The notes beneath the pieces were generated by a model. That model saw nothing but the letters and a program-made list of their open reading frames with translations, was not told the DNA's origin and did no database searches. A program made the position numbers and the translations under genes. A stretch of 64,000 bases of DNA from a virus (taxonomy: Duplodnaviria > Heunggongvirae > Uroviricota > Caudoviricetes): the IMG/VR virus record IMGVR_UViG_3300042561_000621; one strand, given 5' to 3'. Positions 3,500 to 41,767 of the stretch are shown piece by piece (within the stretch, counting starts at the first letter, position 1; the number at the start of each line of letters is the position of its first letter).

Positions 3500-3772
3500 C
3501 CTAAAAGCTTTTTATCTTTTAGTTCTATAGCTTCTTATTAACTATAGTTCAGCATATTTTTTTATCCTTGCAAAGTTAATGCAGTGGGATATTAGAGTCT
3601 CTTGGCTATTTATATTCTGTTAGTCTTAACAGGTTCAATTAGCTATGCGTTGCCCCTGACTAGTTTATTACTACTTAGCCTTCGGTTCAGGTTATCATCT
3701 CAGACTTTCCTGCTTAATACTCTAATTATCATTTACTAATTACTTAGTAATGGGACATGTATTTTATCCGTT
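3500..3772 (-). mobile_element. putative ORF-less group I intron (polymerase intron 1, about 270 nt; boundaries +/-10 nt)
   Basis: Non-coding, locally GC-richer and structured interval between SAQRKGPN(G) of exon 1 and KDVQG of exon 2. R-like UAAGACUAACA and S-like CUGAACUAUAGUU elements lie just upstream of the 3' splice site. Confidence 0.5.
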
Positions 3773-5623
3773 AGGGCCCTTCCTCTGTGCTGAAGATTCA
3801 TTTCCTTTAGAATTAGCTTCATCTACATACAACCATCTAGAGGTTGGTAATCTAATTCTTTTACATCTAACACCTTCTTTAGAAGTAGTATCTAACCAAT
3901 GTTTAAGTTTATAAAATTGATTAAAATAACTAGTTAGTATCTTTCCTGCTTCTTCTACTGAACATTTTAAATCATTAGACAAACCTTGTTCAGTCTTACC
4001 ATAGATAACACTAAAATTTAATACTTTGCCTTGAAATCTATAATCAGCACCATCATGACCCTTTTCAGCCATCTCTCTAATTAGTTCAGGTGCATAAGTC
4101 TTTAAAGCAGGACATAAACCCATAGCAGCTACTGTATGAGGATCAGTGTAAGGATCTTCTACTGGTTTATTATCCTTATTAAGTATTTGATTACCCTTGC
4201 TATCAAGTAAATATAACTGCTTCTTCTTTTGATAAAAAGGTGCCAAGCCAGCTTCATCTTTAGCATATGCCATAGCAGTGAGTACCTCTTCTGCTACATA
4301 GTCTATACCAGCTATAACATAGTTGTCCCTAGCAATATAACCACTTCTAACATTAAACTTACCTCTTGCTATAACTTGTTGAAGATTCATTTTATACTTC
4401 TTATCTCCAACAATAATAGAACCAGATGAAGACATTCTTCCTGTGGCGGTTCCTACAGGATTAGTAGTAGCATGTAAGGCTCCACTTATAGGATTAACAA
4501 TACTGTTATACTTACTGATTTCTGTCTTTAGTTTTTCCTGCTTCTTATAAGTTATTAGAGTATTAATAACCTCTTTAGCTTCAGCTTTATTAGTAATGTT
4601 ATCAACATCTAAGTCTTCATCCTCATCATCAGAGTCATCTTCTTCTTCATTATCACTAGTTAAAAACTCTTTCATAATGACAGCATTTAATGCTGTCAAG
4701 TTAACTTTAAACTTACTATTAATAATAGAAGCTAACTTCTTAGGGTTGTTAAATACTTTAGTTACAAGAGGTGATACAGACATACATTGATGCAATACAC
4801 CCTCATCATCTTCTTGTAGTTCTACAGATAATGGCTGATCTAACTGTTTAGCAAGACTAATTTTAGTCTCATTAGATAGTAGTTCAAGCTCTTTAATAAA
4901 GCCAACCATCTTATCCTTATCAATGATAAAACCTACATATTCAACTATAGCTAGAATTCTCATAGCTTCTTGATCTAAGTTGAATGCATACTCTTCATCA
5001 TAGTCTTGTATTAAAGAATCTTTAACACTTAAAATTAAGTTTAACCATTCACTACTAACATCTCTAGCTGAATACTTTAGTTGTTCTGATGATAACAAAG
5101 GAGAAGACCAATCAGATGTTTGTAACTCTTTACTCATTACAACACCAGCAAAGTGTTTCATAATAACAGCTAAACCAGCACCTATTAACTTACCCTGTCT
5201 CCAACCTATACTCACATATAAAGTATTAAACATTACCATAGAACAATATATATTAGTAAGTTCTAAGTTGTAATGATGCTTAATCTGTCTTATTTCAAAA
5301 GCAGCATTATGAGCCCACACTATAAACTTAGAACTATCACTAAGTAATAATAATAAAGGTGTTATATCTACATTATTTAATTCAATAACAATAGGTGCTC
5401 CATCATTACCAATCCAATTAATACTAAGTAATCTAAGCTTATTACAATAAGGATCAATGCCACTACTAACAAGCCTAAATTCTTCTTTAACATACGTTTC
5501 AAAATCAATACCTACATTAACTATATTATTAATAGAAAGAGTTACAAGAGTATTAATAACATACTCTTGTAACTCTTTATTTGTAGTAATGTAGGAATAA
5601 TCATTATTCCTATGTGACAACAT
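3773..5623 (-). CDS. family-A DNA polymerase, exon 1 (3'-5' exonuclease domain, polymerase motifs A and B)
   Basis: TATGRMSSS; DYVAEEVLTAMAYAKDE (motif A-like); GKVLNFSVIYG (motif B); SAQRKGPN matches SAERAAIN. The ORF-track stop at 3764 lies inside the intron. Confidence 0.8.
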
Positions 5624-6449: not shown

Positions 6450-7472
6450 TTAAATTAAAGAATTAACATGATCTCTTAGAGCTATAAATAAAGGCTGTTC
6501 TGTTTTTAACTTAGTAGCTAAATTGCTTTCACCTTGTACTTTAATAGGCTCATCTGAACTTAAATTGGGCAAACTTAAAGTAATCCAAGAACCAGCTTGT
6601 TTAATAACATTTACATCTGGATGCTTGGCCATTCTAATCAAATCTATGTAAGGATTATACATAGTGTTAGTAATAGTTTTATCATCACTATCTTGTTCTA
6701 AATCTACTTGCATATCAATAGATCTCAATGCTCTACCATACTTTGATTTAATACATTTAATCTGTACATCAAAGTCATTAATACCTTGTTCATCAGGTGC
6801 TTTTAATGCTCTCTTACTAGTCATTAATCTAATACTAGCCCAATAAGGTAAACCCTTACCACCCATACTACCTTCAGGGTTACCATAACCACTCAAGTTA
6901 GTATTTCTAACTTGATTAATAAGAATAAGTACAACATTATGTTTCTTACACTTAACACTAAATTGTGGTAAGTTTTCACTTAACAATCTAGCTCTAACAC
7001 CCATAACATGAACATCCCCTACTTCTTTACTTTCATCTGTTAATTTCTCTGGAACAAGACCAGCAACACTATCAATAATAACAGCACAGAAGTCATCACT
7101 AAGATAAGATCTAGTACATTGTAAACCTTCTTCAGCACTAGTAGCATCTACTAATAATACCTTATCAGGATCTAATCCAACATTAGTAGCATGTGTACTA
7201 GTATAACCAAACTCACTAGCTTGTATATAACCAACAAACTTATCTGTTTGTTTTTGTAATTGAGCAGCTAAATACATAGCTAATAATGATTTACTTGTTT
7301 GTTCAGGACCATATATTTCAATAATAGTGCCATATGGAACGCCACCACCTAACAAGTAATTAATAGAAGGTGATTCTAACTTAAATCTTTGTACTTCAAC
7401 TTGATTACCAATACAAACTTGTTTCTTACCAACTACCTTTTCAGTTAGTTTTAAATACTCATTTAAATCCAT
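6450..7472 (-). CDS. RecA/UvsX-like recombinase
   Basis: LGGGVPYGTIIEIYGPEQTSKS (RecA P-loop region), VIIDSVAGLVP (Walker B), and overall RecA length and architecture. Confidence 0.8.
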   Translation of the reverse strand: MDLNEYLKLTEKVVGKKQVCIGNQVEVQRFKLESPSINYLLGGGVPYGTIIEIYGPEQTSKSLLAMYLAAQLQKQTDKFVGYIQASEFGYTSTHATNVGLDPDKVLLVDATSAEEGLQCTRSYLSDDFCAVIIDSVAGLVPEKLTDESKEVGDVHVMGVRARLLSENLPQFSVKCKKHNVVLILINQVRNTNLSGYGNPEGSMGGKGLPYWASIRLMTSKRALKAPDEQGINDFDVQIKCIKSKYGRALRSIDMQVDLEQDSDDKTITNTMYNPYIDLIRMAKHPDVNVIKQAGSWITLSLPNLSSDEPIKVQGESNLATKLKTEQPLFIALRDHVNSLI

Positions 7473-10537: not shown

Positions 10538-11407
10538 ATGGCATCTAAAAGAATTAGTCAATTGCCTCCTGCATCTTCTGTATCAGGCAATTCATTATTA
10601 GCTATTGTTAATAACAATGTAACTGAAAAAGTTACTATATCTCAACTACCTTTAGGTATTACTACAGTTAATAATTTAGGAACTGGAGCTTCATTAGGAT
10701 TTATAGCAGAAAATCAATTAAAGTTAAAAACTTTAATAGCTGGAACTGGTTTATCGTTTACAACAAGTTTTAATAGTGTTACATTAAATACAATATTTAA
10801 TGTTAATAATGTAGGTAGTGGAACCTCACTTATAAATTCATTTACTAATCCTAATCTAGCTTTAAAGTCTATAACTGGATCTGGTAATATTACTATAACA
10901 GATAATACTACTAGTATTAATATTGCTAGTACACCATTAACAACTTCTAATACTGGTAGTGGAACATCATTTATAAACTCTTTTACTAATAACAACTTAG
11001 CTTTAAAGTCTATAACTGGATCAGGTAGTATAACAGTTACAGATAACACTACTAGTATTAATATTGCTAGTACCCCTGTAACAAGTTCTACTACAGGTTC
11101 TGGAACTTCTTTTATAAATTCATTTACTAACTCTAATTTAGCTCTCAAATCAATAACTGGATCAGGTAGTATAACTGTAACTGATAATACTACTAGTATT
11201 AATATTGCTAGTACCCCTGTAACTGCTTCTAGTAGTGGTTCTGGTACATCCCTTATAGATTCATTTACCAACTCTAATCTAGCTTTAAAGTCTATAACTG
11301 GATCAAATGGTATAATAGTTACAAATAATACTACTAGTGTTGATATTGCTAATACTAATAATATAAATTTTGCTCAAATTTTAGCAATAGGAATGCTTAA
11401 ATGTTAA
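10538..11407 (+). CDS. repeat-containing fibre-like protein (4 tandem copies of a ~41-aa unit)
   Basis: TSFINSFTNSNLALKSITGSGSITVTDNTTSINIASTPVT repeated four times; antisense ORF 10714..11271 is a shadow. Confidence 0.6.
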   Translation: MASKRISQLPPASSVSGNSLLAIVNNNVTEKVTISQLPLGITTVNNLGTGASLGFIAENQLKLKTLIAGTGLSFTTSFNSVTLNTIFNVNNVGSGTSLINSFTNPNLALKSITGSGNITITDNTTSINIASTPLTTSNTGSGTSFINSFTNNNLALKSITGSGSITVTDNTTSINIASTPVTSSTTGSGTSFINSFTNSNLALKSITGSGSITVTDNTTSINIASTPVTASSSGSGTSLIDSFTNSNLALKSITGSNGIIVTNNTTSVDIANTNNINFAQILAIGMLKC

Positions 11408-12762
11408 TACTAGGAACAACAACAGATAAAATTCAAGTTACTTTAAGTAGTGCAATTACTACAAATCAATTAGATTGTATTGCAACTTATAAAGATATAA
11501 CAACTTCAGCATATTCTGGAAGCGCACCAATACTTGTTACAACTAATAACACTACTGCTGTAGATTTGGTTCCAGCACCAGCTTCTAATACTCAAAGAAT
11601 TGTAGATTTTATTAGCATTTATAATAATGACACTGCAAATGCTACTGTAATTGTAACAATAAATAGAAATGGTTCAATTGGAATCCTTTTTAAATGTACT
11701 TTAAAAACTAGTGAATCTTTAGTATATAGTGAAGGTGCAGGTTGGAATATACATTCAAATGATGGATCTCCTAAACAATCTTTATTAAATGATTATAGTA
11801 ATATAACTACAAATAAAAATTACTTAATTAATCCTAATTTTAAAGTAATTCAAGGAGCAGTCTCAGGTACACTTGCAAATTCTAATGCATTGCCAAATCA
11901 ATCCCTAGGATATTTAGGCAAAACTAATTGGTATGAATGTGCTACTGGAGGCACTCCCACTTATGCTTATAATGCTACTAATGAATCAGTTACTTTTACT
12001 GGTGCTGCATCTACAACTAATATATATTTTGGTCAAAGAATTGAAAGTTCAAATGTAGTTACACTTGCAAATAAAGTAGCAACAATGACCTTAAGTGTTG
12101 AACTCTCTAATTCATTGTTAACAGCTGTAACTTGGGAGATATTTAGACCTACTACAAGTAATGATGTACATGGTACAATTGGCACTCCAACACAAACATT
12201 AATTGCTAGTGGTACATGGAATGTAAATAGTACCTTAACCCGATATAATGCTAGTTTTACTCTTCCAACATCAGCTTCTACAGGATTAGATATAAGATTA
12301 AGAGTAGGAGCACAAACTTCAGGTACTTGGGTAATTAGTAGATTAAAATTAGAAGAAGGTAGTATTCCCACTACTTTTAGTTGTGAAGATTATTCACAAG
12401 AACTATTTAAATGTCAAAGACATTTTATTAAAAGTTTTGATATTGATACTGTTCCAGCTCAAAATGCTGGAAGAACTTCTGCCTTTGAATTTTTTGCAGG
12501 TAGTGTTGCTGCTGCTAGTGCAGTATACTCTTTAAGATTTCCTAATAGAATGTTTGTTATTCCATCTGTAACATTATTCAATCCAAGTGTGGCAAATGCA
12601 CAGGTAAGAAACCAATCAAGGTCTGCTGATTGTTCTTCTAGCACTGTTGTTGCTAATGGTACATCTCAATCAGGAATTGCAATACAAGCAACTGGTGCTA
12701 CTGCTCAAATGGTAGGAGATACATTGTCAATTCACTATTCTGCATCTGCACAAATTCCTTAA
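11401..12762 (+). CDS. putative tail fibre / receptor-binding protein, paralog A
   Basis: 453 aa, S/T/N-rich; first ~130 aa nearly identical to 12919..14205 while the C-terminus diverges. Confidence 0.5.
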   Translation: MLILGTTTDKIQVTLSSAITTNQLDCIATYKDITTSAYSGSAPILVTTNNTTAVDLVPAPASNTQRIVDFISIYNNDTANATVIVTINRNGSIGILFKCTLKTSESLVYSEGAGWNIHSNDGSPKQSLLNDYSNITTNKNYLINPNFKVIQGAVSGTLANSNALPNQSLGYLGKTNWYECATGGTPTYAYNATNESVTFTGAASTTNIYFGQRIESSNVVTLANKVATMTLSVELSNSLLTAVTWEIFRPTTSNDVHGTIGTPTQTLIASGTWNVNSTLTRYNASFTLPTSASTGLDIRLRVGAQTSGTWVISRLKLEEGSIPTTFSCEDYSQELFKCQRHFIKSFDIDTVPAQNAGRTSAFEFFAGSVAAASAVYSLRFPNRMFVIPSVTLFNPSVANAQVRNQSRSADCSSSTVVANGTSQSGIAIQATGATAQMVGDTLSIHYSASAQIP

Positions 12763-12918: not shown

Positions 12919-14205
12919 ATGTTAATATTAGCAACAACAACTGATAAAATTCAAGTATTACTTACAAATGCAATTACTACAAATCAATTAGACTGTATTG
13001 CAACTTATAAGGACATTTCAACTATAGCTTATTCTGGTAGTTCTCCAACACTTGTTACAACTAACAATACAACTGCTGTAGATTTAGTACCAGCACCAGC
13101 TTCTAATGTTCAGAGAATTGTAGATTTTATAAGTGTTTACAATGCTGATACTGTAAATGCAACACTAACTATAAGAATAAATAGAAATGGTTCTACTGGA
13201 GTACTTTTTAGATGTACTTTAGCAACTAATGAGTTACTTGTATATGTTGAAGGAAAAGGTTGGAATATACACTCAAGTAGTGGTTTATCTAAACAATCTT
13301 TATTATATGATAATAGTAATATTAGTTCAAATCCAAACTATTTAATTAATAGTGGTTTTCAAGTTGCACAAGCAGCAACATCTGCAACAATTACTGCTGG
13401 TACAGCTAGACCTACTGCTTCAATTGGCTATCCAGTTGTTGATAGTTGGTTTTGTTATTCAGTTGGTGGTAATCCAACTTTAGCTCAAATTGCTGGTTCT
13501 AACACTACGGCTAATAGACTTCAATTAACTGGTGCAGCATCTATAACTTCTGTTGGTATTGGTCAGAGATTAGAAGCTATAGATACAACATCATTAGCTT
13601 TAAAGACAGTAACTTTATCATTTGAATGTAGTAATTCTTTACTTACATCTTTAACAGTAATAGCTAATAGACCTACAACTACAGCTAACACATTTGGCAC
13701 AATTGGAACTCCTACAAAGACTTTAATAAATTCTACTAATGTTGCAATTAATTCAACTTTAACTAGATATTCAGTAACATTTACTTGTCCACAAGATGTT
13801 GATAAAGGGTTGGAAATACTATTTGTTTTAGGTGCTCAAACTAGTGGCACTTTTGTTTTAGCTAATGTTAAATTAGAAGAAGGTAATATTGCTACTACAT
13901 ATGTAAATTCTATTTATTTATCTGAATTGAATCAATGTCAGAGATACTTTAGAAGATTATCAGATTATCTATATGTTTATTTTGCTGGTACTGGTGGTAC
14001 ATTAAATACTGAACAAATGCATTTAAATATGTTTGGTACTACTAGAATTAGAAATTTAATAGCAGGTAATGCATTCAGTGGAACTACAGTTACTATAGTA
14101 GCAGGGCTCACTGAAGATTCAACAATAGCAAATTATACAAATACTGGTGTAGCTGGTTACCGTGGTGGCAATCCAGTATATACAGTATCAGCATACATTC
14201 CTTAA
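12919..14205 (+). CDS. putative tail fibre / receptor-binding protein, paralog B
   Basis: MLILATTTDKIQV...CIATYKD...WNIHS N-terminus shared with paralog A; variable C-terminal half. Confidence 0.5.
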   Translation: MLILATTTDKIQVLLTNAITTNQLDCIATYKDISTIAYSGSSPTLVTTNNTTAVDLVPAPASNVQRIVDFISVYNADTVNATLTIRINRNGSTGVLFRCTLATNELLVYVEGKGWNIHSSSGLSKQSLLYDNSNISSNPNYLINSGFQVAQAATSATITAGTARPTASIGYPVVDSWFCYSVGGNPTLAQIAGSNTTANRLQLTGAASITSVGIGQRLEAIDTTSLALKTVTLSFECSNSLLTSLTVIANRPTTTANTFGTIGTPTKTLINSTNVAINSTLTRYSVTFTCPQDVDKGLEILFVLGAQTSGTFVLANVKLEEGNIATTYVNSIYLSELNQCQRYFRRLSDYLYVYFAGTGGTLNTEQMHLNMFGTTRIRNLIAGNAFSGTTVTIVAGLTEDSTIANYTNTGVAGYRGGNPVYTVSAYIP

Positions 14206-18319: not shown

Positions 18320-19717
18320 TTAAATTTTCATAATATATGCTAGGGCATAATAAGGAGGTAAATTATTAGTTGTAGCAGTAGTAGTTGAAAATCCATGAGT
18401 ATGCCCTCCATTAGAACCAGCAGATGCAACACTAATATTAGTAGTATTTAATGTACTATTTGCATAGGGAGGATTAACCCAGGTATCACCAGGTTTACCA
18501 GGCGCTCTAGATTCAAAAGTTGATCCAGTAGCAAAAAAAGCATACCCACCAACTATATGATTATGACCAGGATCATTTACAGTATGAGTATGTGCTGGCA
18601 TTTGACTAACAGTTAAAGTAGTAGCATTACTAGTACCACTTAAGGTATGAGTATGATTAATAGTACCACCAACAGAATTAACAGAATAAAGAGAGCCAGC
18701 ACCTACTATAAATCTATTTCTTAAGTCTGGGGTATTGTTTGTACCATCACAATTATGAACTAAGAAACCATTAGCAATAAAAGAATGATTATCTTCTACT
18801 TCAATATCATATTTAATATCATAAATTCTTCTATTCTTTTTAGAAGAATGTAATTCACTTATTGCTTTCTTTTCAACTGTAAAAGTTACTAAATCTTTAG
18901 AAGTAGAATCATATCTAAGTATTTTATCTCCTGTATTTACATATTCTGTTTTAGTCCATCCTTTATTAACAACCCAAACAGGATGATCTTTGGTTAAAGT
19001 TAGAGATTTAGGACCTAATCCTTTTGCTTTAGCTACTTTTAATTTATACCAAATAGATCTATCTTCAACTTTGTTCTTAAACCAGTTAATAACTTTTTTA
19101 TGTTCTAATTTACCAGTGCTTTCATTATATGAAACAACTTCAACTGCTAATTTATTATTAACAATATCTTGTATTTCCATAATACTACCATCAGACAATA
19201 AGACTTGAGAATCACCTAATAAACAAAGCTGCCAAGAAATAGGAATAGCACTAGTTAAACCACTCCAAACTACAATAATACCCATTGCAATTCCAAGTTC
19301 TAATGTTATTATTCTACCTTCTATTGATAATAATCTACTATTAAATGAACTAACAGTATTATTTAAAGTATTAAAAGAATTAACTAAATTAGCAATTTGT
19401 TGAGCTTGCTCAGCTATAGTTGCATTTTGATTATTAACTAATGTTGTAATTGCATCAATATTACTCTGTAATGAAGATTGAACATCTGCTAAATCTTGTG
19501 CAGTTTCTCCAATAGCACTAGCATTATTAGCTATACTACTATTTATACTATTTATAACATTAGTTTCAGATAAACAAGTGTTTAAACTTGCACTATTAAT
19601 TTTAGAACAATTAAGTTCTCCAGTTGCATTTGCTAAATCTAAGACGTAGTCATAGTTTGAGTCAACCTCTGAACATGAAAGGGGACTGCCCTTAGTGGAT
19701 ATTTTTATCAGACTCAT
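18320..19717 (-). CDS. phage tail-collar-domain protein carrying a mini-intein
   Basis: The N-extein ends ...AIPISWQL and the C-extein starts CDGTNNTPDLRNRFIVGAG. Joined, they match the collar consensus IPxGWxLCDG..TPDLRGRF. HTHT/HNH repeats and a Gly-rich stretch lie downstream. Confidence 0.75.
   Translation of the reverse strand: MSLIKISTKGSPLSCSEVDSNYDYVLDLANATGELNCSKINSASLNTCLSETNVINSINSSIANNASAIGETAQDLADVQSSLQSNIDAITTLVNNQNATIAEQAQQIANLVNSFNTLNNTVSSFNSRLLSIEGRIITLELGIAMGIIVVWSGLTSAIPISWQLCLLGDSQVLLSDGSIMEIQDIVNNKLAVEVVSYNESTGKLEHKKVINWFKNKVEDRSIWYKLKVAKAKGLGPKSLTLTKDHPVWVVNKGWTKTEYVNTGDKILRYDSTSKDLVTFTVEKKAISELHSSKKNRRIYDIKYDIEVEDNHSFIANGFLVHNCDGTNNTPDLRNRFIVGAGSLYSVNSVGGTINHTHTLSGTSNATTLTVSQMPAHTHTVNDPGHNHIVGGYAFFATGSTFESRAPGKPGDTWVNPPYANSTLNTTNISVASAGSNGGHTHGFSTTTATTNNLPPYYALAYIMKI
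18752..19225 (-). mobile_element. mini-intein (158 aa, Hint domain, no homing-endonuclease domain)
   Basis: It begins with block A CLLGDSQVLLSDGS and ends ...GFLVHN before the +1 Cys. It is inserted exactly inside the conserved W-x-L|C-D-G collar motif. Confidence 0.7.
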
Positions 19718-19799: not shown

Positions 19800-21038
19800 A
19801 TGAGAAAAAATAAAGATAAAGGTATTTATAAAATAATAAATATTATTAATAATAAATATTATATAGGTTCTAGCGTTGATTTACAAAGTAGAAAAGCAAA
19901 TCATTTTAGAAAACTAAAAACAAATAAACATCATTGTGTTCATCTTCAAAATGCTTGGAATAAACATGGAGAAGAAAACTTTAAATGGGAAATAGTAGAA
20001 ATACTAAATGATTTAGATTTAGCTGAAATTAGAAAAGTAGAACAAAAATATATTGATGCTGATTTTAATAATCAATATAATATTGCAAAAGATACTATGG
20101 CTCCAGGAATTTATTCAGAAGAAGTAAAGCAAAAACAAATTAATGCTTGTAGAGATACAATAAGACCTAATAACAAAACAGGTCATACAGGTATTCATTA
20201 TTCAGAAAAAGAGAAAGATTATAGACCCTCTATACAAGTTTGGGGTATTAGAGTATTTCTTGGTTCTTATAAAACATTACAAGAAGCTATTAATAAAAGA
20301 AAAGAAGCTGAAGAATATTTTTGGCAACCTTGTATAGAAAAATTATCTAAAGAATTAAAACAATTAATTGTTAAACAATATAAAGAAGCTAATAAAATAG
20401 CTAGATCTAATACAAATGTTGAAGGAGTTGTTTATTCTAAAGATAGAGAATACACAGCTTATATAACAACTAAAGACAATATAGCAATTCATTTAAGTAC
20501 TAATCTAACTTTTAAACAAGCCTTAAAAGTTAGAAAAGAAGCAGAACAATATTTTTATTCAGAAGAATTTATAAATTTATCTTTTCAACAAAAAGAAGAA
20601 GCTATAAAACAATACAAAGACAAATTAAAAGGATGTAGAAATAAATCTGGCCATAAATTTGTTATATGGAATAAAAATACAAATGATTGGGTAGTTAAAC
20701 CTTTTATTGATAATAAATTAATAATGCTTGGCTATTATAAAGATTTGAATAAAGCTATAAAAGTAAAAAATGCGGCTTTATTATATTTTAACTCTACTGA
20801 ATTTTTATCTAATAATTTAGAAACTAGATTACAATTAGCACAAAACTATAAAAAAGAATGTTTATTAAATAAGAATAAAGATAAAGAACAAGGAATTTGT
20901 TATATTAAATCTAAATCTATTTGGAGGGCTTATATATTTTACAATGGTAAAAATATATCTTTAGGTCAATATCCAACTAAAGAAATGGCTCTTCAAGTTA
21001 GAAAAGAAGGAGAGTTAAAATATAGAAATAATACTTAA
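19800..21038 (+). CDS. free-standing GIY-YIG homing endonuclease with four AP2-like DNA-binding repeats
   Basis: GIYKIINIINNKYYIGSS...R...N GIY-YIG core, followed by four repeats of the type YRPSIQVWGIRVFLGSYKTLQEAINKRKEAEEYF; it lies on the strand opposite to its neighbours. Confidence 0.75.
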   Translation: MRKNKDKGIYKIINIINNKYYIGSSVDLQSRKANHFRKLKTNKHHCVHLQNAWNKHGEENFKWEIVEILNDLDLAEIRKVEQKYIDADFNNQYNIAKDTMAPGIYSEEVKQKQINACRDTIRPNNKTGHTGIHYSEKEKDYRPSIQVWGIRVFLGSYKTLQEAINKRKEAEEYFWQPCIEKLSKELKQLIVKQYKEANKIARSNTNVEGVVYSKDREYTAYITTKDNIAIHLSTNLTFKQALKVRKEAEQYFYSEEFINLSFQQKEEAIKQYKDKLKGCRNKSGHKFVIWNKNTNDWVVKPFIDNKLIMLGYYKDLNKAIKVKNAALLYFNSTEFLSNNLETRLQLAQNYKKECLLNKNKDKEQGICYIKSKSIWRAYIFYNGKNISLGQYPTKEMALQVRKEGELKYRNNT

Positions 21039-22982: not shown

Positions 22983-24401
22983 CTAATTATCTATTACTAA
23001 TAATTCACCAAATAAAGGAATATTACTCTCATTGTATTCCTTTTCTAATACTGTCCATATAACCTGTATAGAACCTTTATTATTAAATGGTTCTAATTCT
23101 TGTGGAACTCTTTCTAAGTATAAATCTGTTAATACAACAATTAAACATACATTATTAATATCAACTTGTTCAAAACCTTTATTAATAAACTGTTTAAAAA
23201 GAGGTATAACATCAGTACCTCCACCTCCTACTAAGTATTTATCTTTATGTTCTAATAACACATCAATAAGAGGTCTATCTAACTCACTCATATTAAATAA
23301 ATGAGTACCAGTAATGCTATCATCAAATGTTACTAAAAGTAAATTACCAACAACTTTACTAATACTATTAATTTGATCTAAGAAGTGATTTAAACATTCA
23401 ATGGAGCCATAAATACTACCAGATAAATCAACAAATACAGCTATTGTATCTGGCTCTGGCAGTCTAATATAAGGATGGTTAATAGCACATCTATTAAAAG
23501 GAGATAAACCCATTTCATAACCATAAAACTCCTCCTCGCTAACAATATTATAATTAGTTATAATCTTATCTGATAAAGAATTAGAAGCTATTTGTTTAAG
23601 TCTATCCTCCCATCTTAAATCACTACTTTGAATAGAATCTACATCAGAAGGTATTAACTTATTAGATAACTTTCCATGTTGCTTTTTCTTATCATTTCTA
23701 ATAGCATTAGCAGCCTTTTTAGTCAGATCTTTAAGGATTTCTTGTTGTTCTTCATTATTGTTAGTAGAATCAGCTTCTAAAACATCAAGATCTATCTCTT
23801 CTAACTTTATAGTAAGACCAGATGGTAATGTAATAGTATCTAAGTCATCATTATTACCATCTTGTTGTTGTCCCTTATTACTACCTCCACCACTAAACTT
23901 ACTATTAGTTAACACATAAGCAAGTAATTGTTCTTCTGTCCAATTATTATCATTAATTCTTGGATGATCTTTTTCTAAAAAAGTGGATAAAAAGACACCG
24001 CCTAAGTCACCAAAAGTATAACCCGCCTCTTTTAATGATTGATTAATAATAGCATCTTCAACTAGATTAAGTATATGGTTTAAGAAGTAAGCTTTATCAG
24101 CATATTGTTTATACAAACCCTTATTATGAAGACCAAATCTATAACTATGATTAAGATATATATGATACATCTCATGCAAAGTTAAAGTTATAAACTCACT
24201 TAACTTACTACTATCAGCCTCAATTTTATTAATGTAAGACTTATTATACATAATAGTATTATTAGTACAAGCTGCATAAGCAAAGTCATAATCCCCTATC
24301 TTAATACTAATAGCAGATAACAAATAAGCAAAAAATGGTTCAACTTTATTAACTAATAAATATATAGTTTTATCAGTAATCTTAAAACTTAGTTTAGACA
24401 T
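22983..24401 (-). CDS. VWA-domain protein with N-terminal zincin-like HExxH motif (DUF2201-like partner of a MoxR ATPase)
   Basis: TLHEMYHIYLNH (HExxH) and the MIDAS motif VDLSGSIYGS; overlaps the upstream AAA+ gene by 8 nt. Confidence 0.6.
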   Translation of the reverse strand: MSKLSFKITDKTIYLLVNKVEPFFAYLLSAISIKIGDYDFAYAACTNNTIMYNKSYINKIEADSSKLSEFITLTLHEMYHIYLNHSYRFGLHNKGLYKQYADKAYFLNHILNLVEDAIINQSLKEAGYTFGDLGGVFLSTFLEKDHPRINDNNWTEEQLLAYVLTNSKFSGGGSNKGQQQDGNNDDLDTITLPSGLTIKLEEIDLDVLEADSTNNNEEQQEILKDLTKKAANAIRNDKKKQHGKLSNKLIPSDVDSIQSSDLRWEDRLKQIASNSLSDKIITNYNIVSEEEFYGYEMGLSPFNRCAINHPYIRLPEPDTIAVFVDLSGSIYGSIECLNHFLDQINSISKVVGNLLLVTFDDSITGTHLFNMSELDRPLIDVLLEHKDKYLVGGGGTDVIPLFKQFINKGFEQVDINNVCLIVVLTDLYLERVPQELEPFNNKGSIQVIWTVLEKEYNESNIPLFGELLVIDN

Positions 24402-25674
24402 TGCTATTTTTTATACCCATATCAACTGTAGATTTAGTAACAATATGTTCATTTATAATCTTTTCACAGTCTTCTATTAACTGATAATAAACATTAACCC
24501 TAGAATTAGCCATTAACATATCAAACACATTACTAATAGTTGCTGGAGTATTAATGCCCTCTTTAAATTTAGTAGATATCAGCTTATCAAGTACTTGCAT
24601 AAGATTACTAATTGGTGGATAAACATAAGTCATCTTACCTTTTTTATTATAATTGACTTCAATCTTACCTTCATCTTTTAATTTTACAAAGGTTGTCATT
24701 CTATTATTAATCTCTTGATAAACAGTGAAAATAACACTACTTACAGCTTCTAAGTTGGCTGTAATATGTTTACTATAATCAACTGACTTATCTTTACAAG
24801 TAGACTCTAAAAACTCAATAGAAGGAATATTTAAAGTACTATTTAAACTTCTAATAAAGATATTAGATAAACTACTACCAATAAGACCGCTAACATTTTG
24901 AGTAAAACTCTCTTTATACTTATTGTCTAACACATTAACAGTTAATTTATATAACATATCAGACACAGCAGACCAAGTTCTAGGACAAGGATTAACATAG
25001 TTATTACTATTAGCACCATAACCTACAAACTCAGTTGGAATACCACCATTAGCTGCTAAGAACTTACTATCATTAGTGATTGCCCACTTCCTATCTTTTA
25101 AAAATGCATGAACACTAGGGTGATTATGATTTGCACTATATTCTAAGTATTCTTCAACATTAAGTTGTACTTCTAAAAGCACCAATCTACTAATAATAGG
25201 ACTACTAATATTAAATACATTAGCATTATCACTAGCTCTATTAGTGGCACCAACAATGATAAACTTATCAGTTGGTAAGTCATAGTTACCAAGCTTTCTA
25301 TCACCCAGTAGTTGCTGCAAAATCATCATCTCTTGAGGATTAGCATTAGCAAAGTCATCTAGAAACAATAGAGTCTTTTTATCATTATTAATAGCATTGT
25401 TATACCATTCAGCAACATAATGAGTACAAGCTTTTGTTTCAGGATCAATAAAATCAACGCCATAGATATTAGATTTAGTGATTAAACCTCCTGTAAATAC
25501 AACAATGTTATAATCATTATCTTTAGCATATTGATAGATTTTAGCTGATTTACCAAGACCAGGAAAGCCCATAAACAAACAACTTCTATTAGTATAACTA
25601 GCAAGTTTAATTTGCATAGGAATACTATTTAAAGTAATCTCCCCACCATTAAAATTTGACAACTTATTTGACAT
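24394..25674 (-). CDS. MoxR/AAA_5-type AAA+ ATPase
   Basis: Walker A FMGFPGLGKS, Walker B LLFLDDF, and a sensor region ...VGATNRA. Confidence 0.7.
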   Translation of the reverse strand: MSNKLSNFNGGEITLNSIPMQIKLASYTNRSCLFMGFPGLGKSAKIYQYAKDNDYNIVVFTGGLITKSNIYGVDFIDPETKACTHYVAEWYNNAINNDKKTLLFLDDFANANPQEMMILQQLLGDRKLGNYDLPTDKFIIVGATNRASDNANVFNISSPIISRLVLLEVQLNVEEYLEYSANHNHPSVHAFLKDRKWAITNDSKFLAANGGIPTEFVGYGANSNNYVNPCPRTWSAVSDMLYKLTVNVLDNKYKESFTQNVSGLIGSSLSNIFIRSLNSTLNIPSIEFLESTCKDKSVDYSKHITANLEAVSSVIFTVYQEINNRMTTFVKLKDEGKIEVNYNKKGKMTYVYPPISNLMQVLDKLISTKFKEGINTPATISNVFDMLMANSRVNVYYQLIEDCEKIINEHIVTKSTVDMGIKNSNV

Positions 25675-37190: not shown

Positions 37191-38038
37191 TTTGTTATCT
37201 TAAGGGCTTTTTATCCCCTAATTCTAATCCTTTCGGTTTATAATGATTTAATAAATAATTATTATATTTTCTATTTATTGATAAACATTTACTGTAATAA
37301 ATTTCAGATAAGAATCTATTACCACTTACTTTTAAAGTTAATTTATAAGTGTTATTTTGTTTACTAATAGAAAAGCAGTTTCCATAATTATTTAATATAT
37401 ATTGGCTTAGTTGATTAATAAAAACTTCACTTGCTGATACTATGCAAGCTTGTCTACTTAAACAACCATCTCCATCCCAACAACCTCTTATTAAATCAAG
37501 CATATAAATACTATCTATATTAGGCAAACTAACAGTAAAAGATTTCTTCTGAGTAATTGAATATTTCTCTAAATCTTTAACCATTTGTTTACATCCAATA
37601 CATAACAAAACGTATTTATCTTCTATTACTTTAAGACAATAATTATCTACACCTAAATCTAAAAGAAATTTATCTAATATATCTTTATCTTTTATGTGTA
37701 GTTTTATATTTACTGTTTTGCCTCGATGGATATATCCATCACTTAAAATAAGTCCAAGAAAATAAGCTTTATTTGAAGAATCTATATTTTCAAAGTAATT
37801 TTTGGGCCAATTGTATTTAATCATTATATATTAGTTCAGACTATCTCTTCATCCTATTATACTATAGGATGTCCCTGCCTCGTGGATTTATTATATTCTG
37901 ATACTTCTATCAGGTTCAAAATCTAGTCGTTGCACCTGGTTAATATATTATTACTAACCTTCAGTTGCTGATTGCCATATACTATTATTAGTACTTAGGT
38001 TTCCAGTTTATTTCAGGGATTTATTACCTATTAATTAC
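37191..38038 (-). mobile_element. group I intron carrying a LAGLIDADG homing endonuclease gene (boundaries +/-20 nt)
   Basis: An S-like GAAGAGAUAGUCUGAAC and an R-like GCAACGACUAG element (minus-strand RNA) are present. It shares the sequence blocks tagtcgttgca and agttcagactat with the GH19 intron. The core is GC-richer than flanking DNA and has no ORF. Confidence 0.55.
37195..37824 (-). CDS. LAGLIDADG homing endonuclease (double-motif)
   Basis: AYFLGLILSDGYI and LIRGCWDGDGCLS. Confidence 0.75.
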   Translation of the reverse strand: MIKYNWPKNYFENIDSSNKAYFLGLILSDGYIHRGKTVNIKLHIKDKDILDKFLLDLGVDNYCLKVIEDKYVLLCIGCKQMVKDLEKYSITQKKSFTVSLPNIDSIYMLDLIRGCWDGDGCLSRQACIVSASEVFINQLSQYILNNYGNCFSISKQNNTYKLTLKVSGNRFLSEIYYSKCLSINRKYNNYLLNHYKPKGLELGDKKPLR

Positions 38039-38041
38039 TTA

Positions 38042-38638
38042 ATAGGAGGCCACTACATTTAGCCCATGACTACAAGTTTGATCAATATTATCATCAACAA
38101 AGTTCCTCTGTACCACTACAGGAACATTAAACATTTGTTTAAATGTCTTTGTATATAAATCAAGAAACACTTCTTTATCATCTGTTCTCTTTACAATCTT
38201 ATACATGATTAAGTTGCCCTTTTCATTGATAACAATGTTATTAGCTTCAATGAAGTCAAACAAGCATCTATTAACCCTATAAGAAGGATTAAGTCTAACC
38301 TTTTCCCAGAACTTAATTAAAGGTGTAATAGAAGACTCATCTTGTTCATACATTGCAATAAGTGTTTTGTTTAAAGATGGTGGTAATTGTTCTACTTGGC
38401 CCTCTTTATTAGTATATGTTACTAAACCTTCTCTAGTAATAGTAACACCTAACTTAGTACTAACTTGAGTTACAACATCAAATAGTTTAATAATAGCTTC
38501 TTCATCTTTATTTCTAATAAGTTCTAATACTTTATTATACTTATCTTCATTTGTATATTTATGTATTGTTACTGGTTTGCCCTTTACAATTATATTTAAT
38601 GTGTTATTTGTGCTATTTAAAATATAGTTAATTGTCAT
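38042..38638 (-). CDS. 5' exon of split gene C (200 aa); function unknown
   Basis: ATG at 38638 overlaps the stop of the upstream gene; the product ends ...QTCSHGLNVVASY at the intron boundary. Confidence 0.45.
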
Positions 38639-40289
38639 TTGTTTCTTCTTTTTCTGTATTATTATTTTGATGTTTGTTATAAAAATCAACTAACTCAATG
38701 TAGTGTGTAATATGACTTTTATTTTGTATATTATTATAACCATAAGAATTAATACTACCTTTAATAATAGGATATGTATTATCTATATCTTGTATTAAAT
38801 CCCTCATATTAAAAGCGCCATGTTTAAGTTCTAACAGACCTTCACTAATAAAATGATTTATTAACTGTTTATGTTTTAACTTAGTATCAAATACTTTAGC
38901 ATCTTCTAAAAACATTGTTATAGGATGATTAGGATGTTCTTTAATAAAATCTGTTTTATATTCAATTTCATTAATATAATTAGATCTATAACTGTTTAAA
39001 TATAAAGTAAAGTTACTATTTAAAACACTAAAATCATCTAGTATAAGTTGAATTAAATCAGTCCAACTATCTTTAACAAGACTTACATCATTAACAACAT
39101 ATATGTCTTTATTTATATAATTAAATAGTAAGGGTTTTAAATAAGTATTAACATACTTACTATAAAAGTCCATTGATATATAATAAACATTCTTACTTAG
39201 CAACTCTTTACTAATGTTTAATTCTCTACCAATCTCACCATCATATGTTGATAATCTATAACACTTTTTGTTTGTTTTAACTGATGCTTTTCTAACTTTA
39301 GTTGCTTTAACAAGTCTATCAACTGGTAAGAAATTAGATAAACATGGTAAATTATAGTAATTATTATCAATGTTATTAACAAGAATAATCTTACTAAGAT
39401 CTGATTCTACATCTTCACATTGTTCTAACTCTTTAACTGTTGGAATATAATTTAAATCATTGTAATAATATATTTTAGAGCTATAAAAACGTTCACCATA
39501 AGTAGAAGTATAAGGATTACATTTATAACTCTTTTTAGTACTTAGGTATCTAACAATATCACACAACCATTTTCTATCACTAACAGTTTTACCACTCCAA
39601 TTAACACTATCAGTATTAAAGTTATTCTTATATAAGAAAGTTAAAACATCTGTAAAACATGTAAAATCTTTAACTTTAATAGCAACTAACTCTTTATAGT
39701 CTTCTACTATTTGAGTGATTAAAGAACATAATGTATTCTTTGTTCTAGTACTAAGTTGTACATTCTTATCAGCAGCTTGATCAATGGAGCCAATAGGTAT
39801 ATTAAACACTACAGCATTAGTTCTTAATCTAGATTCAATATAGCCATATACATCACTATTTAAAGTATATTTTAAGTCTTGTAATTTAATATAGTTAGGT
39901 AAACCACCAATTAAACCCACCAAATTGTTAGCATTTGCAAAAGATGTAGCATGTGTTTTAAATGATTTAAACTCTTCATTATAGATTGGTGGCTGAACTA
40001 AAACACCATCAATGTTTACATTAGTTAAGTATTTAGTATGTTCTTTAACATAGTTAGATAAAGTAGTAAAGTCTTCATTTTTAATCTCAAATGAAATAGA
40101 AACACCCGTTAGTTCTTCTTCATTGTTAGTTACATTTTCTTCTAGTAATAGAGAAACAAAGACTTTATTGTTGTCTTTACTAATTACATACTCTCTCTTA
40201 TACTTGGCACCATCACTATCAATTGTAATACAAGTAGCAGTGTATAAGTCTGTATATGCTAAAGGTGACATTCTGCCAATTCCTACATG
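38628..40289 (-). CDS. GHKL-family ATPase, GyrB / type II topoisomerase ATPase-subunit-like, 3' exon
   Basis: In the joined product DVLGG|IGRMSPLAY resembles the G2 box (GGLHGVGVSVVNALS); LSTRTKNTL resembles the transducer QTK loop (SSQTKDKL); LYTATCITIDSDGAKYKREY resembles LELVIQREGKIHRQIY. Confidence 0.45.
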   Translation of the reverse strand, partial: HVGIGRMSPLAYTDLYTATCITIDSDGAKYKREYVISKDNNKVFVSLLLEENVTNNEEELTGVSISFEIKNEDFTTLSNYVKEHTKYLTNVNIDGVLVQPPIYNEEFKSFKTHATSFANANNLVGLIGGLPNYIKLQDLKYTLNSDVYGYIESRLRTNAVVFNIPIGSIDQAADKNVQLSTRTKNTLCSLITQIVEDYKELVAIKVKDFTCFTDVLTFLYKNNFNTDSVNWSGKTVSDRKWLCDIVRYLSTKKSYKCNPYTSTYGERFYSSKIYYYNDLNYIPTVKELEQCEDVESDLSKIILVNNIDNNYYNLPCLSNFLPVDRLVKATKVRKASVKTNKKCYRLSTYDGEIGRELNISKELLSKNVYYISMDFYSKYVNTYLKPLLFNYINKDIYVVNDVSLVKDSWTDLIQLILDDFSVLNSNFTLYLNSYRSNYINEIEYKTDFIKEHPNHPITMFLEDAKVFDTKLKHKQLINHFISEGLLELKHGAFNMRDLIQDIDNTYPIIKGSINSYGYNNIQNKSHITHYIELVDFYNKHQNNNTEKEETNDN

Positions 40290-40359: not shown

Positions 40360-40968
40360 CTATATATTTATTGCTTTATACTTCATACATTCAATTTGAT
40401 TAACATAAGGTCTTACTATTTCTAAGAATCTTCTACCTTCTTTAGTAGACATTCTTAGTCTGTATAGATTTTTATGCTTTGTTATCTTCCAAGTAATATC
40501 CCATTTATCTTGAAAATATTTAACTATTGTTTCATTTTCTTCTTTTGATAAATAAGTACTAAGAACTAATTCCCAAGCATGTATCTTGCCATTTCTTTTC
40601 TTAGGATATAAAGAACCATCATCCATCCACCAAATAGCTAATCCTATAGGAGTTAATCTATTTAAAGCTTTAAGAGGTATAGTTTTTACTTTATTTTTAT
40701 ATAAATATTTATGTAAAACTCTAAAATATTTATGTCCTTTTTCTAAGATAACAGCGGGATATTTCCTATTAACTATCTGTCTAACATTTATATTAGATTG
40801 AAAGATATTTCTAATTAAATTAGCTTTCCAATCTAAATATTCTTTTTGTTTTAGACAGTGAGTAATGGTCAACCTACCATATAATGAAGCATGACTAGGT
40901 TTTGCAACGCAGCCATCTCCAAAAATAATTCCCATCAATATTGAAATGTTTTCTTTTGTTTTTAGCAT
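40360..40968 (-). CDS. LAGLIDADG homing endonuclease (double-motif), located between the R and S elements (P8-loop position)
   Basis: LMGIIFGDGCVAK and LAIWWMDDGSLY. Confidence 0.7.
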   Translation of the reverse strand: MLKTKENISILMGIIFGDGCVAKPSHASLYGRLTITHCLKQKEYLDWKANLIRNIFQSNINVRQIVNRKYPAVILEKGHKYFRVLHKYLYKNKVKTIPLKALNRLTPIGLAIWWMDDGSLYPKKRNGKIHAWELVLSTYLSKEENETIVKYFQDKWDITWKITKHKNLYRLRMSTKEGRRFLEIVRPYVNQIECMKYKAINI

Positions 40969-41098: not shown

Positions 41099-41767
41099 TT
41101 AAAGTGGACAAGGCTTTTTATTTTTACTATACTCATTACTATTAAAATTTTTGCTCCAAGTAAAATTATTTATGACATCCCACTTTCTTTGTAGATACAA
41201 AGCATTATGATTTGTCATTAAATTTACTAAATTTATTATGCTAGTTTGACGACCAACTTTTAACTCATATTGGTTTCTTCTTGCAACTACACAATATCTA
41301 ATGTCATATTCATCATAGATAGCCATTATATATTTAAAGAACGAAGCACAATTTCCATATATTGTAATTCTTTTATTATTAGTTGAATTAACATATACAT
41401 TACCATCACCATCAAAAACACCTCTTAAGAAATCACCAGGATATAATAATTTTCCAGGATTACCTAATAGATCTTTGTTCTTCATACTTTTACTTGGCAC
41501 TAAACCATGACTCATTAAATCAATAACTAACTGTTTGCTATAACAATAGATTAACCAGCATTTATGATACTTTTCTTTTTTAGGTAAACAAAAGAAAGGA
41601 AACACTTCAACTATTCTATCTAATAATTCAACATCATTAATTTTGATTCTGCAACAGTAAGATTGTCCAATATTATTTGTAATAGATCCATCACTATAAA
41701 ATTAAACCTAATAAATAAGCTTTATTTGGAGTGTCAATTATTTTAAATTCATCAGTATATTTCATAA
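41099..41767 (-). pseudogene. frameshifted LAGLIDADG homing endonuclease gene
   Basis: ATG at 41767 gives MKYTDEFKIIDTPNKAYLLGLIL, then a stop. The +1 frame continues FYSDGSITNN...FDGDGNVY, so a single indel falls inside LAGLIDADG motif 1. The N-terminal region is nucleotide-homologous to the HEG at 37195..37824. Confidence 0.55.

Follow-up and report, generated by a model that had tools for sequence, protein, structure and literature searches.

A class-1 mini-intein, predicted to splice, within the most conserved motif of a phage tail-fiber tip

In a 64,000-nucleotide (nt) stretch of DNA from a virus of the class Caudoviricetes (IMG/VR record IMGVR_UViG_3300042561_000621; here called the window), one gene encodes a 465-amino-acid (aa) precursor in which a tail-fiber protein is interrupted by a mini-intein. 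Profile, alignment, and modeling evidence make it very probable that the protein is a short trimeric tail fiber, built from a coiled-coil stalk plus a tip of the receptor-binding type, that was invaded by a selfish class-1 intein at its W-Q-L/C-D-G codons (a slash marks a junction throughout). The gene was singled out in a prediction made from the DNA letters without database searches, which described a 158-aa insert and a 307-aa spliced product; reading of the open reading frame (ORF) and verification of the coordinates showed the insert boundaries and both lengths to be right to the residue. The original prediction gave no strand; the ORF lies on the minus strand (Table 1). The precursor junctions read ...GIIVVWSGLTSAIPISWQL/CLLGDSQVLLSDGS...NHSFIANGFLVHN/CDGTNNTPDLRNRFIVGAG, in the context AIPISWQL/CLLGDSQVLLSDGS ... 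GFLVHN/CDGTNNTPDLRNRFIVGAG, and the predicted spliced product joins a 164-aa N-extein to a 143-aa C-extein.

The insert was recognized as an intein by three family profiles, a result that chance cannot plausibly explain. TIGR01445 (intein_Nterm; NCBIfam) scored 42.0 bits against a cutoff of 24.5 with a match that begins exactly at Cys165, and TIGR01443 (intein_Cterm; NCBIfam) scored 38.3 bits against a cutoff of 15.6 with a match that finishes at the His-Asn pair. Queried with the insert alone, Pfam PF14890 (Intein_splicing) matched end to end at 37.0 bits (cutoff 35.8). In a phmmer search of PDB sequences, the insert aligned end to end with the Spirulina (Spl) DnaX mini-intein 7cfv (9.5e-11), and further matches were to the Mtu RecA, NrdJ-1, and Ssp DnaB inteins. 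An alignment of 12 intein sequences (A2; the window intein and 11 intein-containing proteins) revealed that C1, T78, H81, D140, H157, and N158 of the intein are invariant, and the +1 nucleophile of the C-extein is Cys323, in the sequence CDGTNN.

Structural prediction agreed with the profile matches. An AlphaFold2 (AF2) model of the intein built on A2 had a predicted local distance difference test score (pLDDT) of 89.7 and a predicted template modeling score of 0.85. When this model was compared with the PDB by Foldseek, the best matches were the Mtu RecA, Ssp DnaB, and Spl DnaX mini-inteins, with E values down to 5e-12, and nearly all of the top 30 matches were inteins, with template modeling (TM) scores of 0.7 to 0.87 for the predicted model. 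Pfam scans of the precursor and of the insert found no nuclease family between blocks B and F; correspondingly, positions 109 to 308 of a hidden Markov model (HMM) of 361 positions, built from 29 inteins of this insertion site, are missing from the window intein. The insert carries Cys1, the TxxH motif, the block F/G Asp, His, and Asn, and the +1 Cys, scores above the profile thresholds, and has a predicted HINT fold, all of which characterize class-1 inteins. By these sequence features the insert is a canonical class-1 mini-intein without a homing nuclease, and splicing itself is predicted. The proposal that the insert has the terminal blocks of a Hint domain and no endonuclease was therefore borne out; the profile search suggested with it gave scores past the cutoffs of TIGR01445, TIGR01443, and, for the isolated insert, PF14890, and blocks A, B, F, and G, failure to align with which was to count against the proposal, were all identified.

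To the profile evidence can be added the state of the site in relatives. Related proteins in a large protein collection show three allele types. The mini-intein allele is found in P0001 (the exact window protein), P0002, and P0004, of 465 to 490 aa; a full-length intein allele with a Pfam LAGLIDADG_2 domain is found in P0003 and P0005, of 686 and 662 aa; and about 38 ortholog clusters of 300 to 344 aa (P0006 and P0009 to P0045, with P0009, P0011, and P0013 among them) have no intein. Within the orthologous clade, about 7 of 45 clusters carry an intein, and in the intein-less orthologs the sequence runs unbroken through the site, between the same flanking residues. One intein-less protein, P0006 of contig L174, is exactly 307 aa long, and its gene is 91% identical to the window DNA over the N-extein and 97% identical over the C-extein, rising to 98 to 100% over the flanking 180 nt. 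Its empty-site DNA, GCTATTCCTATTTCTTGGCAGCTT/TGTGATGGTACAAACAATACCCCA, equals the N-junction half of the window joined to the C-junction half; directly across the site it reads GCAGCTT/TGTGATGG, and as a target stretch it is TCTTGGCAGCTT/TGTGATGGTACAAA. The window therefore holds a precise 474-nt in-frame insertion.

The full-length alleles account for the small size of the insert. The inteins of P0003 and P0005 are 361 aa long and contain two LAGLIDADG motifs, IIGMYLSDG and LAHWYMGDG. Mapped against P0003, the window intein is this 361-aa form minus 203 codons, between ILRY-EPTF/TDEG and ELLT/KDLV, with a DSTS linker left behind. The nuclease deletion is identical in the window, P0002, and P0004, and the splicing domain of the window intein shares 97.5% nt identity with that of P0003. 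Full-length LAGLIDADG inteins are clearly the parent form of the window copy.

Substitution patterns indicate that the element is maintained and point to its movement between genomes. The ratio of nonsynonymous to synonymous substitution rates (dN/dS) is 0.21 for the splicing domain (window versus contig L169; dS of 0.50) and 0.175 for the nuclease domain of two full-length copies (L005 versus L169), and thus both parts of the intein are under purifying selection. Compared with L005, L009, and L171, the intein DNA of the window is 97.5 to 99.8% identical, whereas the adjoining exteins are just 74 to 92% identical; dS is 0.03 to 0.05 for the intein and 0.35 for the N-extein. The intein is therefore much younger than its host genes. 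A young intein in older flanks is the classical signature of spread by homing, and these comparisons point to recent horizontal spread. No co-conversion gradient was seen around the insertion site; identity drops sharply at the intein borders.

The host protein was identified from its spliced form. Searched against PHROG, the spliced extein matched phrog_5795 (1.9e-30), phrog_8469, annotated "tail fiber protein" (4.6e-22), and phrog_1800, annotated "tail collar fiber protein" (2.3e-18). A profile of 23 extein orthologs, 22 of them intein-less (A1), matched tail fibers of known structure in the PDB, namely, 9qgo_A (4.1e-17), 9nxk_A (1e-13), and 6ov6_A (1.3e-12), as well as 8kec_A. These sequence matches to solved fibers, in place of a fold search with a monomer model, are what identify the tip domain. 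Residues 42 to 144 form one long helix in the AF2 model and gave profile matches to coiled-coil families only; this helix is probably a coiled-coil stalk. The C-terminal ∼160 residues contain HxH motifs and, in A1, an invariant NLPPYYALAYIM end. Around the insertion site, I158, P159, G167, N169, T171, P172, D173, R175, R177, and F178 are invariant in A1, and the insertion lies inside the most conserved stretch of the host domain. The +1 residue itself is not invariant: it is Cys in 16 of the 23 sequences, Thr in 5, Ala in 1, and Met in 1, with P0022, P0023, and P0045 as examples of the Ala, Thr, and Met variants. Ala or Met at this position could not support splicing and would alter the nuclease target, and we speculate that such alleles may be intein resistant.

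The original prediction placed the insert in the most conserved motif of a tail-collar domain. Insertion in the most conserved motif is upheld by the A1 invariants, and a tail-fiber-type host by the PHROG and 9qgo matches; the assignment to the Pfam Collar family, in contrast, fell short. The proposed search with PF07484 (Collar) gave only 7.5 bits for the spliced extein (E = 5.4; cutoff 24), covering profile positions 1 to 21 of 57. PF07484 was matched at an E value of 10 or lower in 10 of the 23 orthologs, at best with 0.0094, and some distant homologs carry a PF07484 match. Judged by its sequence, the extein family seems to be related to Collar but shorter, missing the central part of the domain, with the PDLR.RF motif coming immediately after CDG.

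From these features we propose the following course of events. The 465-aa precursor would be translated and its HINT domain would fold, permitting an N-S acyl shift at Cys1. Trans-thioesterification would pass the N-extein to the +1 Cys, cyclization of the terminal Asn would free the 158-aa intein, and an S-N shift would restore a normal peptide bond, giving the 307-aa fiber ...SWQL-CDGTNNTPDLR..., whose tip domain could then form. The element that originally entered the gene family would have been a 361-aa intein with a LAGLIDADG homing endonuclease, which in a coinfection would cut the conserved site of intein-less alleles, with repair copying the intein in. The window copy would represent a later stage of this homing cycle, in which an in-frame deletion of 203 codons spared the splicing domain; such a mini-intein would still have to splice for the fiber to function and would have no homing of its own. 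The chemistry of splicing, the mode of homing, and the requirement of fiber assembly for splicing are inferred by analogy with known inteins, and it is a reasonable inference, as was proposed at the outset, that virion assembly depends on splicing.

Three findings weigh against this interpretation. Over the whole precursor, PF14890 scored 33.6 bits, slightly below its gathering score of 35.8. Modeled by AF2 as a monomer, the spliced extein is poorly predicted over the tip domain (pLDDT of 58), in which the insertion site lies. Finally, the nuclease-less mini-intein occurs in at least three extein backgrounds, with the near-identical empty allele of L174 beside it, which calls for an extra assumption: the mini-intein may have moved with a nuclease supplied in trans by a coinfecting full-length copy or by plain homologous recombination, or it may have been precisely lost.

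An alternative explanation is that the insert could be a decayed, splicing-dead relic, the fiber gene being either a pseudogene or functional with the 158-aa domain retained as a loop, given that loss of the homing endonuclease is a step on the usual path of decay. We regard this as improbable, as all catalytic residues are intact and invariant across relatives, the splicing domain has a dN/dS of ∼0.2, and the reading frame is open across all copies from several samples; moreover, the insertion disrupts the motif that is best conserved in the tip domain, where a retained domain of 158 aa would be hard to accommodate. Alternatively, the insert could be a cleavage-only autoprocessing domain of the HINT or bacterial intein-like (BIL) type that releases or activates the C-terminal tip without ligation, as pretoxin-HINT and BIL domains do. 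Self-cleavage matures many tail fibers, Pfam PT-HINT matched the insert weakly (24.9 bits, below its cutoff of 27.7), and the lower-ranking matches of the fold search include the BIL2 and Clostridium thermocellum BIL structures. BIL and pretoxin-HINT domains occupy variable, nonconserved positions, and usually lack both a +1 nucleophile and relatives with a homing endonuclease. Here, however, the canonical residues for full splicing (the terminal His-Asn and the +1 Cys) are in place, no motif of the host is better conserved than the one at the site, intein-less orthologs run through it with identical residues on both sides, and the LAGLIDADG endonuclease of sister alleles defines a mobile intein rather than a BIL domain. 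True inteins were also the best profile and fold matches, and release of the tip by cleavage alone is in our estimation a shade less credible still than decay. A further alternative, a chimera in which assembly fused a foreign intein to a fiber gene, comes to mind because the window and its relatives are metagenome assemblies. Its probability is negligible: three samples each yielded another, independent contig with an identical copy of the 465-aa protein, so an assembly artifact is not at work, and the architecture recurs in numerous additional contigs as well as in a cultured phage with a complete genome, Salicola phage SCTP-2.

Beyond a selfish invasion, the intein could have a role of its own, as it is placed precisely where the conserved stalk meets the hypervariable receptor-binding tip. 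Cutting by the nuclease at the W-x-L-C-D-G codons during coinfection could drive the exchange of downstream tip modules between phages, and a selfish element would then speed host-range shuffling. Alternatively, the splicing of three inteins per trimer could serve as a conditional gate on fiber maturation, for example, a redox-sensitive gate acting through Cys1 and the +1 Cys. The fiber gene is indeed mosaic: its first ∼90 nt and, in the C-extein, the middle portion from the HTHT to the GGHTHG motif swap as modules among close relatives, the swapped modules being 30 to 60% identical (window positions 18323 to 18751 and 19630 to 19717 compared with L005, L007, L009, L171, L172, and L174). This mosaicism fits receptor-binding variability. 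The same pattern is present between intein-less alleles, so mosaicism just downstream of the site lends no specific support to either idea, and we consider such a role of the intein unlikely, though somewhat less so than the alternatives above.

To place the selfish class-1 intein in a wider context, its occurrence at this site was surveyed with precursor residues 136 to 380 as the query in an HMMER search of 1.84 billion representatives, from which the top matches of 5,888 were fetched. Among those retrieved and checked, an intein separates G-W-x-L from C-[DN]-G in 33 proteins. Most of these inteins (26 of 33) are full length, at 352 to 380 aa, and all 26 are of the LAGLIDADG_2 type; distant full-length carriers are P0046, P0048, P0049, and P0123 to P0149. 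The N-terminal regions of the 33 carriers differ greatly, and some hosts, such as P0128 and P0163, are canonical long Collar-type proteins (CDG..SRTTY..LF...F.[LV]PDF.GR). Mini versions beyond the clade of the window (P0121, P0122, P0137, and P0169) have their deletion junctions elsewhere, which means at least five independent losses of the nuclease. Salicola phage SCTP-2 is the sole carrier among 50,697 deposited phage records. When IMG/VR and JGI metagenome contigs were scanned with the extein alignment, the intein was present in 0 of the 159 best loci; the tip domain itself is very common, with more than 570 confirmed matches in each of the two scans. Five loci with overly long extein matches were rejected as intein carriers because they proved to be tandem fiber genes. 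The site is a recurrent home for inteins, yet one that is filled in a small minority of fiber genes.

Table 1. Positions of the tail-fiber gene, its intein, and neighboring genes in the window
Feature	Position	Strand	Remarks
Precursor ORF, tail-fiber protein with mini-intein	18320..19717	minus	465 aa plus stop
N-extein, residues 1-164	19226..19717	minus	short N-terminal region, then long helix, then start of tip domain, GIIVVWSGLTSAIPISWQL
Class-1 mini-intein, precursor residues 165-322	18752..19225	minus	158 aa; TIGR01445/TIGR01443, PF14890, phmmer, AF2 and Foldseek
Intein block A, CLLGDSQVLLSDG	19187..19225	minus	Cys1 nucleophile, codon 19223-19225
Intein block B, TKDH (TxxH motif)	18983..18994	minus	intein residues 78-81
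Homing-endonuclease deletion scar, DSTS	18899..18910	minus	207 residues here in full-length relatives (EPTF...ELLT)
Intein blocks F and G, YDIEVEDNHSFIANGFLVHN	18752..18811	minus	block F Asp, penultimate His, terminal Asn
C-extein, residues 323-465	18323..18751	minus	143 aa; +1 Cys (18749-18751), CDGTNNTPDLRNRF, HxH tip domain, C-terminal NLPPYYALAYIMKI
Free-standing GIY-YIG homing endonuclease with AP2-like DNA-binding repeats	19800-21038	plus	412 aa; immediately upstream of fiber gene, divergent
Free-standing LAGLIDADG_2 homing endonuclease	40360-40968	minus	202 aa; PF03161, 129 bits
LAGLIDADG_3/WhiA-like ORF	41099-41605	minus	
LAGLIDADG_3/WhiA-like ORF	37195-37824	minus	
Tail-fiber-like ORF, paralog 1	11401-12762	plus	phrog_4492, ~1e-25; 5-8 kb from fiber gene
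Tail-fiber-like ORF, paralog 2	12919-14205	plus	phrog_4492, ~1e-25; 5-8 kb from fiber gene
DNA polymerase	3764-5623		
UvsX-like recombinase	6450-7472		
AAA-type ATPase	24394-25674	minus	conserved gene pair with DUF2201 gene, pair span 22983-25674
DUF2201 metallopeptidase/VWA-like protein	22983-24401	minus	

The window has the appearance of a large AT-rich phage (26% GC) that encodes a DNA polymerase, an RNA ligase, and a UvsX-like recombinase along with several homing endonucleases, and related contigs reach 243 kb (Table 1). At least four genes of the homing-endonuclease type are present. The presence of the GIY-YIG gene next to the fiber gene varies among related contigs, and L171 keeps ∼118 nt of its 3′ end. 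An obligatory link between this gene and the intein (collaborative homing) was suggested by the first four contigs and rejected once all four combinations had been found: intein and endonuclease gene together (window, L005, L009, and L169), intein alone (L171), endonuclease gene alone (L172 and L173), and neither (L007). Aligned with the intein-family HMM, the product of the free-standing LAGLIDADG_2 gene covers precisely the segment missing from the mini-intein. As a trans-acting stand-in for the lost nuclease it was also rejected; the two belong to the same Pfam family but are only 25% identical, and a shared specificity is unsupported. A 547-aa ORF (38628-40271) lies within the region of the LAGLIDADG genes. 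Structural and replication genes are interleaved near the fiber gene. The PHROGs label "HNH endonuclease" on the family of the DUF2201 gene looks like a mislabel, and in L172 this gene is split into ORFs of 140 and 266 aa.

Inteins are heavily biased toward enzymes that handle ATP or nucleic acids, and this bias has been used to argue for function or for limits on the sites that inteins can occupy. A recurrent intein in the tip of a tail fiber, an intertwined trimer with no nucleotide chemistry, is a clear counterexample that stands beside the portal, minor capsid, and tape-measure cases. The compact natural series of empty, full-length LAGLIDADG, and several independent mini alleles in close, jumbo-phage-like genomes suits the study of the homing cycle. 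Fiber genes of this kind are misannotated as "hypothetical," as in SCTP-2, and profile models miss them, the domain being split. For efforts to bring phage adsorption under conditional control, a natural mini-intein that must, as predicted, splice within a receptor-binding protein could offer a place to begin. The window holds an ordinary intein in an unusual host, which is notable for specialists in inteins and phage fibers and leaves concepts unchanged.

Compared with the solved mini-inteins (Mtu RecA delta-I, Ssp DnaB, and Spl DnaX 7cfv), the window intein is alike in length range, in blocks A, B, F, and G, in Cys1 and His-Asn, in its predicted HINT fold (TM scores of 0.7 to 0.87 for the window model), and in having no endonuclease domain. 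Sequence identity is just 20 to 28%, and the hosts differ, the solved mini-inteins residing in replication and repair enzymes and the window intein in a virion tail fiber; several of the former are laboratory deletions, whereas the window deletion is natural. The full-length same-site inteins (P0003, P0005, and the distant ones) share its site and splicing domain but keep a 203-residue, two-motif LAGLIDADG_2 domain. Its counterpart in a cultured phage is gp4 of SCTP-2, a jumbo phage of 440 kb. This 938-aa protein (ASV44019.1) has a 159-aa mini-intein at the same site, W-A-L/C-D-G, in a homologous fiber tip and shares 37% identity with the window protein across residues 135 to 465, but it has a far longer N-terminal fiber shaft and an independent endonuclease deletion junction. 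The gene (L001:4231-7044; MF360958.1, 1195-4008) is labeled "hypothetical protein," its intein unannotated, and in the literature found, only a PolB mini-intein is mentioned for SCTP-2 (PMC6892783).

The tip itself resembles the Collar or "microcystin-dependent protein" tip (PF07484; 9qgo, 9nxk, and 6ov6) in its G-I-I-x-W-x-G...IP.GW.LCDG start, its PDLR.RF motif, and its PPYYALAYIMK-like end; the ∼25-residue middle of PF07484 is absent from the window extein, in which CDG is followed directly by TNNTPDLR. Among phage-related exteins, a 2016 survey listed terminase and portal (PMC4760082, table 3), and the 19 host proteins of a 2025 actinobacteriophage survey include minor capsid, tape-measure, and baseplate-wedge-like proteins (bioRxiv 10.1101/2025.01.02.630785). 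Like the window intein, those of portal, minor capsid, tape-measure, and baseplate-wedge-like proteins are selfish elements in nonenzymatic virion proteins, with identical inteins in divergent exteins indicating active spread; their hosts and insertion sites are different, and those surveys contain no tail-fiber or Collar extein. A metagenomic survey of variable phage genes lists 36 tail fiber or collar cases and no intein (PMC7468147, table 2). The literature covered, from which subscription journals were largely absent, yielded no description of an intein in a tail fiber, a Collar-type protein, or a receptor-binding protein. The original prediction had called an intein in a tail protein unusual, which holds for the tail-fiber host, apparently undescribed until now, but not for structural exteins as a class, which have precedents in portal (PMC4760082) and in minor capsid and tape-measure proteins (bioRxiv 10.1101/2025.01.02.630785). 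Inteins in phage structural proteins are thus already known, and what appears to be new is the tail-fiber or Collar-type host protein and the insertion site within it.

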